A stretch of DNA of 64,000 bases from Octopus vulgaris (Eukaryota): contig OX597823.1 of the NCBI GenBank assembly GCA_951406725.2, positions 47,678,001 to 47,742,000 on the forward strand, read 5' to 3'. Below, one piece after another: positions 15,001 through 18,000 of the stretch (the first letter of the stretch is position 1; each line of letters begins with the position of its first letter). Made by a program: the position numbers.

Positions 15001-18000
15001 GAGTCCCACCCTATCCATGCAGACATTGAACCCACCCGCTCCCCCCCAACAAGAAAACAAAAGAAAAAAAAGAATACACATACACAAGAGATTGAAATCG
15101 AGCCCAGGCCGTACATTTGTACTGTGACTGAACGGAGAGAAGTTGAAAGTCTAATGGAGGAGTATAAATGGTATGATGTTGGAGAGACTAGGTATGCTGT
15201 GATTGAAAGGAAGAACATAGGTGAGTTTGTGGGGAGGTGTGAAGGGGAGGATTGGGAGGTGAAAGATGTAAGAATGAGCGATGAATTCGTGGAAGGTGTG
15301 AATGAGTGTTTCGGAGTAGGAATGGATATGGAATTTATTCGTATTGACAAAGAACATTCAAGTGACTATGAAAAACAAAGGACAGGTAAGTGATGCTGAC
15401 GGACGGGGCCGTTGGTATCACTTTCATTTTATCATTTTTCGTTTAACAATTCATGTTCATAAAGTTTAATTATAATGTTCTATGTCCCCATGTTTTGTAA
15501 TGTCCCCCTCTTCGTTGGCCCCTTGTGGGTAATAAAAAATCACGTTTTTTTTCGGCTCTGTGTTTTTTGCTCTCTGTGAAATTCGGTAAAAAGAAAAAAG
15601 AACAAAAAGTGAATGGTTGTTGGTGTAAAATTTTGAACATAGTTGATGAGGTTTCGCGTCTCACTGGTTCTGCGCGTTACACTTTTTCGGTTCGGGAGGC
15701 CGTTTCTCGGCCGGAGGCGACTATGAGCCGCCTCCATCAAGCGGAGGAGATGGAAGGGAGAATTTACTCTGAAATTTCGACGGAAGTATCGACATCTGAG
15801 GAGGAGTTGGCGGTGAAAAAGATGGAAGGCACCTACGCAGGTGTAACGAAGAAGTCAACGGAAAGAGAGATAGACTTGGCTAAGTTGGCGGGCCTCCAGG
15901 AATTTGTGAAGGAGGACGAGAACGGTGAAGTTGAGCTGCTGCATCCAGTAGGGTGCGGAGACTGGTTCCATCGTAGAACCATTAAATATAAAGTATTTAT
16001 GAATGGAGGTAGAAAGATGGAAGTAATTAACATGGAAGCAATTGAAGAGGCTCTTAAGCAGACGGGAGAGGAAATTGTGTACATGACGAAAGGATTACAA
16101 TACGGAACCATAACGGTGCAATTTAAAAGTGAAAAAGCAGCCAGGAATGTAGCAGCCAAGGTGGTGAGTACAGAAAAGATTTACTTGTTACCCTCGTATC
16201 TGAATAGGCGGACAACTAGAATTAGGGTGGAGGGAATACCTCCACACCTAGAGGGCGAAGTAATAACGGCTGCGGTTATAAAAGGAAATGAGGATAAGGT
16301 GGACATCCTCCACGCCAGTATGAAGTATGAAGGCGTGAGAGGTGCCACACTGGTTATGAACATTCAAACGGAGGCGGATGTTATAGAGAAGATTACGGAC
16401 AGCATAAAGACTGGAAATATTATTATGAGAGTGTGGGTGGAGGGTAGGGCGCCCAGGTGCTACAAGTGTGGCCAAAGGGGTCACATAAGAGCCTACTGCC
16501 CTCCCCCACCAAAGGAAAAAGAAAAGGAAAGCGTTGAGGAAGCCTCGGGAGAGGAAGAAAATAAACAGAAACAAACAGAGAAGGAAACGACAGAAGAAGA
16601 GGAGATGCAACAAGAGTGGAAAGAAGCGGGAACAAAGAGAAAAAGAAGGAAAAAGAAAAACTGTGCGAAGCCCCAAACCACCCCGACACCACCCATACCC
16701 TTGGAGTCCCATCCTTCCCCTGCAAACAGTAATTCCACCCACTCCCCGCCTACAAGAAGAATAAAAACAGACACACAGAGCAAAGAAAGTCCCAAGACCC
16801 ATTTTTTATTTGTTATACATGGGAGAGACGTACAAAACGTTAAAAAAACTGGTGTTAACCAAGTGGTACGAACACGAAGATTGGAGCTACACGGCTGTGG
16901 ATGGTGATGATACGGGTATATTGGCGACAAGGTTAGAGGAAGAGGGTGTGTGTTGGAAGTCAGTGGAAATGAAAGATGAATGGATAGAGAGGGCTACAAG
17001 AAAAACGAATGTTGTGATGGTTAAAACAGGAATACTAATTGAAAATGGGTGAAGAAGGACAGATAAGTGATGCTGGCGGATGGGGCCGTCGGTATCGCTC
17101 TCATATATCATTTTCATATTCCATTTTGCTCATATATATGTAATTGTGATGTTCCATGTCCCCATGTCTTGTAATGTCCCCCTCTTCGTTGGCCCCTTGT
17201 GGGTAATAAAAAATCACGTGGTTTTTTCGGCTCCTGAAAATTCGGTAAAAAAGAACAAAAAGCGTTGTTGTTGTTGTGGAAATTCTGAACGGCGTTGACG
17301 CGGTTTCGCGTTTCGCTCGTTCAGCGCGTTACACTTTTTCTGTTTTGGCGGCCGTTTTCGGTCTGTCAGACAGAAGGAGATGGACTATGAGTCTCTAACA
17401 GACTTGTCCACGACAGATGAGGAACTGGAACAGGCAATTGCAGTGAAGCTGATGGAGGAAAAGGCTGGAGTTTTTGAGTCTTTATCAGACTTGCCTATGT
17501 CTGAGAAGGAGCTAGAAATGGCAGCAAGGAAATTGGAAGACAAGCTGAGTTATACCTATGCCGGTGTAACCAAGAAGGCGGAAGAGAAAGGGGTCGACAT
17601 GGCCAAGTTGCCAAGTTACCAGAAATACATGAAAAAGGAAAGCGGTGAGGTGGAACTATCACCGACACCCAGGAGAAAAGAATGGTATGATAAGAGGACC
17701 ATTGTTTACAGGGTGTGCGCAAACGAAAGGAAGAGGGTAGAAGTTGTATCCATGGAATGGATAGAGGAAGCCCTGCGAAGAACTGAGGAGGAAATAAATT
17801 TTCTGACTCGAGGATCCAAGTACGGGACCGTAGTTGTGCACTTTAAAAGTGAATCTGCAGCGAGGAAGATGGCAGCGAAGGCGGTGAAGTCGGAAAAGGT
17901 AACACTGTTACCTACGTATTTAAACAGGAGGATTACACGAATAAGGGTGGAGGGAGTGCCACCAAACGTGGAGGCAGAATGGATTGTGGCGGCTGTGATC

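Follow-up and report, generated by a model that had tools for sequence, protein, structure and literature searches.

Several described systems are related to the idea of an editing footprint in chromosomal DNA. APOBEC enzymes edit retrotransposons in the G-to-A direction, with C>U on the complementary DNA (cDNA) and G>A on the plus strand, and such changes have been fixed in genomes. Gene conversion and break repair templated by cDNA or by transcripts are known as well, from yeast Ty and from transcript-RNA-templated repair. For A>G changes, the closest cases are hyper-edited avian retroviral sequences of Rous-associated virus as well as avian leukosis virus (Felder, 1994; Hajjar and Linial, 1995; both as described in the review PMC12925331). 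At the RNA level, metazoan hyper-editing clusters have been described as dense A>G changes over a few hundred bases in transcribed repeats, young ones being the main targets, with sense-antisense pairing as a possible substrate (PMC9989829, PMC4365171). [quoted passage not shown] It is a long-standing open question whether the outcomes of RNA editing ever return to the germline genome, and for the coleoids, with their massively edited transcriptomes, it is particularly pointed. In this study, we analysed a 64,000-nucleotide stretch of the O. vulgaris genome (GenBank assembly GCA_951406725.2, contig OX597823.1, positions 47,678,001 to 47,742,000 of the forward strand; hereafter the window), which contains a tandem array of 17 units resembling open reading frame 1 (ORF1) of an L1-like retrotransposon. 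In unit 9 of this array, a short tract carries 15 A>G changes that lie on one strand, avoid a 5′ G and coincide with the markers of another subfamily.

The tract in unit 9 resembles the avian retroviral sequences in having clustered, strand-specific A>G changes in a reverse-transcribing element, which in the reviewed cases were attributed to the reverse transcription of RNA that had been deaminated as a duplex. According to the same account, however, the avian sequences were exogenous, arose in culture, had an identified inverted repeat or antisense partner and showed changes at nearly 50% of A, whereas unit 9 belongs to a germline-assembled octopus L1-like ORF1 array, has about 19% of its A changed, shows no visible duplex partner and is altered in a short internal patch instead of being a new copy as a whole. 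The APOBEC-edited retrotransposons are similar in that an enzyme footprint is kept in genomic copies and is found by comparison of paralogues, but the enzyme, the substrate and the direction are different, the polarity in unit 9 being A>G. The metazoan hyper-editing clusters are mismatches between RNA and DNA, whereas in unit 9 the G is present in the genome assembly itself. The patch proposed here is also comparable with yeast RNA-templated repair, in which a short chromosomal tract is replaced from an RNA-derived template, with the difference that unit 9 is known from its sequence alone, from which the type of template (RNA, cDNA or DNA) is not readable. No report of a germline-fixed ADAR-type patch in a non-LTR (long terminal repeat) element or in a cephalopod genome was found in searches of full-text literature, subscription literature and supplements being outside the search. 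We regard the observation as real and statistically strong, and an ADAR-like reading as the best available one.

A strand-specific A>G cluster in unit 9

To define the units, one of them was compared with the window by BLAST and multiple alignments were made; the units were assigned to four families: A (units 1-8 and 10), B (units 9, 11 and 14), C (the chimeric units 12-13) and D (units 15-17). To compare the members of family B, units 9, 11 and 14 were aligned across 1523 columns (Table 1). Units 9 and 11 differ at 21 of these columns, and 16 of the differences are sites at which unit 9 has G and unit 11 has A (15102, 15124, 15134, 15137, 15145, 15159, 15209, 15229, 15244, 15250, 15268, 15295, 15296, 15298, 15308 and 15319). 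One site within the same tract, 15301, runs in the opposite direction, and the other four differences are an indel at 14860, a T/A at 14886, an indel at 15041 and an A/C at 15373. The upstream flank (13901-15101; 1,201 bp) thus holds only three differences, namely two 1-bp indels and one T/A, and the downstream flank (15320-15545; 226 bp) holds one. Unit 14 served as the outgroup for polarity and also to represent the donor type. It carries G at 15137 but A at the remaining 15 of the 16 sites. An earlier note on this DNA, based on alignment by eye, had claimed near-identity of units 9 and 11 upstream, 16 G/A sites in 15102-15319 with a single reverse difference, A in unit 14 at 15 of the sites, a 5′ neighbour of A or T at 14 of 16 and of G at one, and an altered amino acid at 14 of 16. 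All of these counts were reproduced exactly by the alignment, the two context and coding figures being sums over the 15 polarised sites and 15137 (in the frame of unit 14, 13 of the 15 polarised changes plus K>R at 15137 alter the residue).

The inferred ancestral tract consists of 80 A, 68 G, 54 T and 16 C, and 15-16 of the 80 A within these 218 bp became G, which is about 19%. None of the 54 T changed to C (binomial p about 4e-4), and no substitution type besides A>G occurs in the tract except at 15301. Outside it, 0 of 100 A changed in the 218 bp upstream (p about 1e-9 at the rate of the tract), and 0 of 29 A changed downstream, in the last 66 bp of the exon-like segment that encloses the tract (p = 0.0024 at the same rate). 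The background is unbiased, as judged from 75 private substitutions in units 15-17, which include 12 A>G, 13 G>A, 11 T>C and 11 C>T. Then, all 43 within-family unit pairs were scanned for mismatches of the same type in 220-column windows. The results showed that unit 9 ranked first, with 16 sites and one other mismatch, followed by a near-pure cluster of 5 sites, while the best T/C case comprised 4 sites amid 10 other mismatches. The possibility, raised in the earlier note, that T>C clusters are as common as A>G clusters does not apply in this window, the 17 units being a small sample. A chance origin of the cluster is excluded.

To determine the direction of change more broadly, we used protein searches, which yielded 36 annotated O. 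vulgaris proteins with 49 copies of the C-terminal domain encoded by this region. At the 12 codons (13 nucleotide sites) altered in unit 9, the other copies (45-49 of them scored) have the A-state residue almost throughout: M12 in 45/45, Q15 in 46/46, K19 in 48/48, K40 in 48/49, M47 in 45/49 (V in 2), R52 in 45/49 (G in none), N54 in 49/49, I60 in 48/49, and N69, M70, Y73 and R77 each in 49/49. V47, in 2 of 49 copies, is the sole altered codon where the residue of unit 9 recurs, and the whole set was present in no copy. A closer relative of the edited domain was not returned by the protein searches either, in which nothing exceeded 87% identity, the level of the unedited consensus. The more distant units 12 and 13 have A at 9 of the 15 polarised sites, T at 15295, and G at 15124, 15145, 15159 and 15308, with unit 12 also having G at 15229. 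Within the tract, 30 substitutions of eleven types separate these two units from family B. Those that are not A/G are all absent from unit 9, and gene conversion with units 12/13 as donors was therefore rejected as the source of the tract. The earlier note had recognised that an ancestral G would overturn its interpretation. An ancestral G is contradicted by the A in unit 14, in units 12/13 at 9 of 15 sites and in nearly all database copies, and on this set of aligned copies the A>G direction on the lineage of unit 9 is secure.

The context of the changed adenosines was analysed as well. The 5′ neighbours of the 15 polarised sites are A (7), T (6), C (1) and G (1), and 15137 adds one further site with a 5′ A, whereas the 5′ neighbours of all 80 A in the tract are G (31), A (28), T (17) and C (4). 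The edited fraction is accordingly 6/17 after T, 7/28 after A, 1/4 after C and 1/31 after G, the last against 14/49 for non-G neighbours (Fisher p = 0.0065). By triplet, the fraction is highest in TAT (5/8) and AAG (4/9) and falls to 1/31 in GAN. WA, with A or T preceding the A, is the context of 13 of the 15 changed A (Fisher p = 0.0095). In a survey of 22 species, the ADAR motif was described as favouring 5′ U or A and disfavouring 5′ G in all metazoans, together with a weaker and less conserved 3′ preference for G and against U (PMC9989829). The 5′ rule holds in the tract of unit 9, and both the strand-specific clustering of A>G changes (0 T>C among 54 T) and the ADAR-like 5′ bias for which the earlier note had suggested a check were borne out.

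A smaller contrast was observed in the C-terminal region of family A, which exists as two haplotypes, one in units 1 (1636-1990), 5 (8333-8670) and 10 (16759-17097) and the other in units 2-4 and 6-8. In about 350 bp the haplotypes are distinguished by 13 substitutions and a single 1-bp indel, 14 positions in all, compared with about 3 in the 1.1 kb upstream. Their first 220 bp contain 5 A/G differences in one direction and 1 C/T, after which the changes are mixed, and over the whole region there are seven A/G sites, with a 5′ G at 1/7. Ordinary conversion could account for this difference, as could an event like that in unit 9 but older and smaller, and we do not claim it as a second event.

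Donor markers and the exon-like segment

Analysis of the domain copies revealed three codons that mark subfamilies, at positions 16, 71 and 86 of the domain (Table 1). Codons 16 and 71 are commonly polymorphic in the family, and R16 and N71 are perfectly linked: all 20 of the 20 other copies with R16 also have N71, and all of these have G86. Among the 49 copies, 25 combine K16 with D71 or E71, and D86 is present in 7, always together with K16 and D71. The haplotype of unit 11 is K-D-D and that of unit 14 is R-N-G, while unit 9 has R-N-D, a combination found in 0 of the 46 fully scored other copies. Both flanks of unit 9 match unit 11, and the tract between them carries R16 and N71. Because the linked markers of the other subfamily sit between unit-11-like flanks, the tract is likely to be a copied-in patch of about 220-265 bp and not a product of in-place decay. 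The patch would cover at least 15102-15319, with its 3′ end at 15320-15346, a limit given by the D86 codon at 15347, and, if the donor was like unit 14 there, its 5′ end after 15081.

The A>G cluster is coextensive with the patch, so that one event explains all 17 differences in the tract, namely 15 edits and 2 donor markers. In-place mutation would need in addition a G>A at 15301 that happens to restore the linked haplotype, and a second, independent conversion in unit 11 would have had to span the same stretch; each amounts to an extra coincidence. The recognition of a patch with foreign markers is new with respect to the observation of the earlier note, which had treated the sites as a cluster of substitutions.

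The patch lies wholly within an exon-like segment of unit 9 (Table 1), equivalents of which, also of 297 nt, are found in unit 11 (18490-18786) and unit 14 (23585-23881). If the template was a spliced RNA, a conversion patch would be restricted to the segment, and the position of the patch is consistent with this. In gene models of O. vulgaris, two or three of these segments, taken from successive tandem units, are joined in frame in one protein, or one is appended to a host gene. Examples are a 652-amino-acid protein with many precomputed Pfam matches, PF00635 among them, and a protein named TP53RK isoform X1. The queries comprised the continuous ORF of unit 14 and the single exon-like segment of unit 9, and no joined-exon model. 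With these, the C-terminal domain gave no Pfam family and no usable ESM Atlas match. The Pfam matches of the domain were all sub-threshold, as in the case of Ephrin (E = 0.0036; 17.7 bits against a cut-off of 25). All five of the five protein matches to the ORF of unit 14 came from O. vulgaris, and one database copy of the C-terminal domain is identical to that of unit 14, which places the window in O. vulgaris or a very near relative.

With respect to the encoded protein, 13 of the 15 polarised changes are non-synonymous, whereas 63 of the 80 A sites (79%) would be expected to give non-synonymous changes (p = 0.35). There is consequently no sign of selection on the recoding, which was rejected as evidence of function, the count being in line with random A>G changes. 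The ORF of unit 9 is out of frame upstream of the tract and stops at 15127, and that of unit 11 stops at the equivalent place. The earlier suggestion that editing diversifies the C-terminal domain is left without support by this p value, by the frameshift upstream and by the recurrence of the altered residues at 1 of 12 codons in 2 of 49 copies. Units 9, 11 and 8 were seen to carry different ORF-breaking 1-bp indels, at 14860, at 15041 (18442/18443 on the side of unit 11) and at 13114, respectively, of which that of unit 9 lies in a GA run and that of unit 11 in a C run. These indels represent either independent pseudogenisation or residual long-read indel errors, and the latter reading bears on trust in the local assembly.

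Organisation of the array and its surroundings

Table 1. Coordinates (in the window) of the features referred to in the text.
Feature	Position	Strand	Remarks
Tandem array of 17 ORF1-like units	527..29436	+	period about 1.65-1.8 kb, head-to-tail; runs off the 5′ end of the window
Unit 9 (family B)	13901..15649	+	ORF 13979-15127, shortened by the 1-bp deletion at 14860
Exon-like segment, 297 nt	15089..15385	+	bounded by AG and GTAAGT; 99 codons, phase-preserving; encodes the C-terminal domain
Cluster of 16 G (unit 9)/A (unit 11) sites	15102..15319	+	15 polarised as A>G through unit 14; 15301 runs opposite
Subfamily marker codon 16	15137	+	AGA (Arg) in unit 9, AAA (Lys) in unit 11; K>R
Subfamily marker codon 71	15301	+	AAT (Asn) in unit 9, GAT (Asp) in unit 11; the one reverse site
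Marker codon 86	15347	+	GAC (Asp) in units 9 and 11, GGC (Gly) in unit 14
Unit 11 (family B)	17302..19035	+	sister copy of unit 9; K16/D71/D86 haplotype; own 1-bp deletion opposite 15041
Units 12 and 13 (chimeric, family C)	19036..22394	+	more distant outgroup
Unit 14 (family B)	22395..24122	+	intact ORF of 471 amino acids, 22474-23889; R16/N71/G86 haplotype
L1-like ORF2, intact, 1131 amino acids	31050..34445	+	directly downstream of the array; endonuclease, reverse transcriptase and zf-RVT

The units of the array are 96-100% identical and are organised in higher-order repeats. Family A shows a four-unit pattern, (u1 u2 u3 u4)(u5 u6 u7 u8); within units 1-8 (527-13900), some variants are common to units 1 and 5 and others to units 2 and 6. 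In addition, the block of units 8 and 9 aligns with the block of units 10 and 11 across 3.7 kb, with junctions common to both. The higher-order pattern and the shared block junctions imply that the array grew through DNA-level duplication of multi-unit blocks, and show that unequal exchange of such blocks enlarged it. The T-rich spacer of unit 9 has 15 extra bases relative to unit 11 (15548-15562). The earlier note had expected the tract to support an RNA intermediate for the ORF1-only units. It does not, as unit 9 stands in register in an array built at the DNA level and shares its junctions with the block of unit 11. Unit 9 is without insertion boundaries distinct from those of its neighbours, such as an own 3′ tail, a target-site duplication or a 5′ truncation, which would mark a newly retrotransposed copy.

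The ORF2 downstream of the array matched the Pfam families Exo_endo_phos (2e-13), RVT_1 (2.5e-31) and zf-RVT (1.4e-08), and its nearest solved relative is the human LINE-1 ORF2p (E = 8.7e-66 over residues 3-867). The element to which this ORF2 belongs may still encode an active reverse transcriptase. A short ORF just upstream of it (30263-30739) contains a weak CCHC knuckle (E = 0.017). In the Pfam search of ORF1, the CCHC zinc knuckle alone was detected, in units of families A and D (E = 1.5e-3, 8.7e-5 and 4.6e-5), and no Pfam family was found for the ORF of family B. Past the element, the region 35000-64000 is AT-rich (GC fraction 0.29-0.40) and dense in microsatellites, with a 66-bp tandem repeat of 4.7 copies at 49966-50270 and an ATC run at 47806-48045.

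Origin of the tract and its significance

We consider it somewhat more probable than its negation, at roughly 0.55, that the patch was templated by an ADAR-hyperedited transcript of another copy, or by a genomic copy descended from such a transcript. The reason is that a pure, strand-specific A>G burst and the avoidance of a 5′ G arrive together with a templated patch. In the proposed course of events, unit 9 would at first have been a copy of the unit-11 type (K16/D71/D86), in which a patch was then overwritten from a template of the R16/N71 subfamily bearing 15 sense-strand A>G changes. These changes would go back to ADAR hyper-editing of a transcript of the domain-coding segment, within double-stranded RNA that was probably formed by sense-antisense pairing or with a distant inverted copy, and the inosine would have been read as G when RNA was copied into DNA. 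Either the L1-like reverse transcriptase, whose ORF lies 16 kb downstream, or some other RNA-reading polymerase could have performed the copying. Entry into unit 9 may have been direct, through cDNA- or RNA-templated repair or gene conversion, or indirect, through ordinary gene conversion from a genomic copy born of the edited transcript. The idea of the earlier note that a hyper-edited transcript was written back into the array thus gains from the polarity, the strand bias, the ADAR-like 5′ context and the copied-in patch, and loses on the 3′ G preference.

Several observations weigh against an edited transcript as the ultimate template. The changed adenosines show no 3′ enrichment of G (5/25, compared with 10/55 for the rest; Fisher p = 1, in a small sample), and a 3′ T is not avoided (6/21, with A at 3/27 and C at 1/7). 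At four of the 15 sites the distant units 12/13 have G as well, which is a larger overlap than expected by chance (hypergeometric p = 0.023). Units 12/13 have G at 7 of 78 A sites, and four of the five overlap sites, when unit 12 alone is counted, have a 5′ T; recurrent change at preferred sites is one possibility. The patch is recognised from two marker sites, and the whole case concerns a single locus. With regard to a duplex substrate, no inverted copy was found in the 64-kb window, where all BLAST matches of the whole unit lie on the + strand. The 21 short inverted repeats that were found in 13000-20000 all lie clear of the tract, and the RNA fold of the equivalent region of unit 11 (18440-19035) is no more stable than its shuffles (z = 0.27). 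Moreover, a non-canonical route is needed, because unit 9 lies about 19 kb from the 3′ end of the element, a distance that ordinary target-primed reverse transcription starting there would have to cover.

A patch with donor markers fits any templated repair, and could have arisen without RNA or ADAR if a low-fidelity Y-family polymerase had made the tract during DNA-templated gene conversion from an R16/N71-type unit such as unit 14. DNA polymerase eta (pol eta) puts G opposite template T at WA motifs, which is the context of 13 of the 15 changed A; for pol iota, G is the preferred base opposite T, and the changes are confined to one strand. Of the pol eta-dependent mutations at A:T pairs, however, about half are A>G, accompanied by many other errors, whereas the 15 polarised changes here are A>G without exception, and the 218 bp contain neither A>T nor A>C, nor any further new substitution or indel. 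Furthermore, a change at 19% of A exceeds the misinsertion rate of pol eta, and pol iota is too distributive for a 200-nt tract, so that we regard this origin as unlikely. A little less likely again is an artefact of assembly, polishing or sequencing, whether through mis-assigned variants of another copy or through systematic read errors. A near-identical (96-100%) higher-order tandem array is hard to assemble, and the 1-bp indels in simple runs of units 9 and 11 are typical of residual long-read error; yet read errors are unlikely to produce 16 changes in the same direction within 218 bp and none in the flanking 1.4 kb, and with a 5′ bias. Mis-assigned reads would still require a real copy bearing the G, and there is none among the 49 annotated domain copies. 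Two further processes were rejected: spontaneous deamination of exposed single-stranded DNA, as 0 of 16 C changed in the tract, and GC-biased gene conversion, as there is no T>C among the 54 T.

The 5′ bias and the short, local extent of the patch would also be explained if ADAR had deaminated deoxyadenosine in the sense DNA strand of a DNA:RNA hybrid with an antisense RNA, the inosine being fixed as G by replication without reverse transcription. In vitro, ADARs have been described as acting on deoxyadenosine in DNA/RNA hybrids, and as keeping there the sequence preferences that they usually show (PMC5389660). This reaction has been shown in vitro only, the review cited above calling the in vivo case unknown (PMC12925331), and it can yield neither the G>A at 15301 nor an R16/N71 haplotype inside a K16/D71/D86 backbone; we accordingly consider it quite improbable. 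The least credible alternative, largely refuted, is that the polarity is reversed, with G ancestral and APOBEC-like G>A changes elsewhere, or that the tract was converted from an old, diverged subfamily. The G of units 12/13 at four sites, and of unit 12 at a fifth, speaks for it. On the other hand, these units share A with units 11 and 14 at 9 of the 15 sites and have T at 15295, and A-state residues occupy all 12 codons in 45-49 copies, apart from V47 in 2/49. An old subfamily is further contradicted by units 12/13 differing by eleven substitution types, where unit 9 differs by A>G only.

One specific form of the edited-transcript explanation can be offered tentatively, although we would sooner doubt than assert it: in the octopus germline, an ADAR-hyperedited and possibly spliced repeat-exon transcript may have directly templated chromosomal repair, the edits then being inherited as an exon-confined patch. 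Were this true, it would constitute a general RNA-to-DNA route by which the heaviest editors could hard-wire their edits and diversify exonised repeat domains. The locus provides a concrete and checkable candidate, as the ancestral and derived alleles are defined and the borders and donor markers of the patch are known. Write-back of an edited transcript predicts that RNA from the unedited copies is edited at the same adenosines. Should more patches of this type come to light in genome-wide scans, retro-copied edited RNA would be a real mutational input in these genomes.

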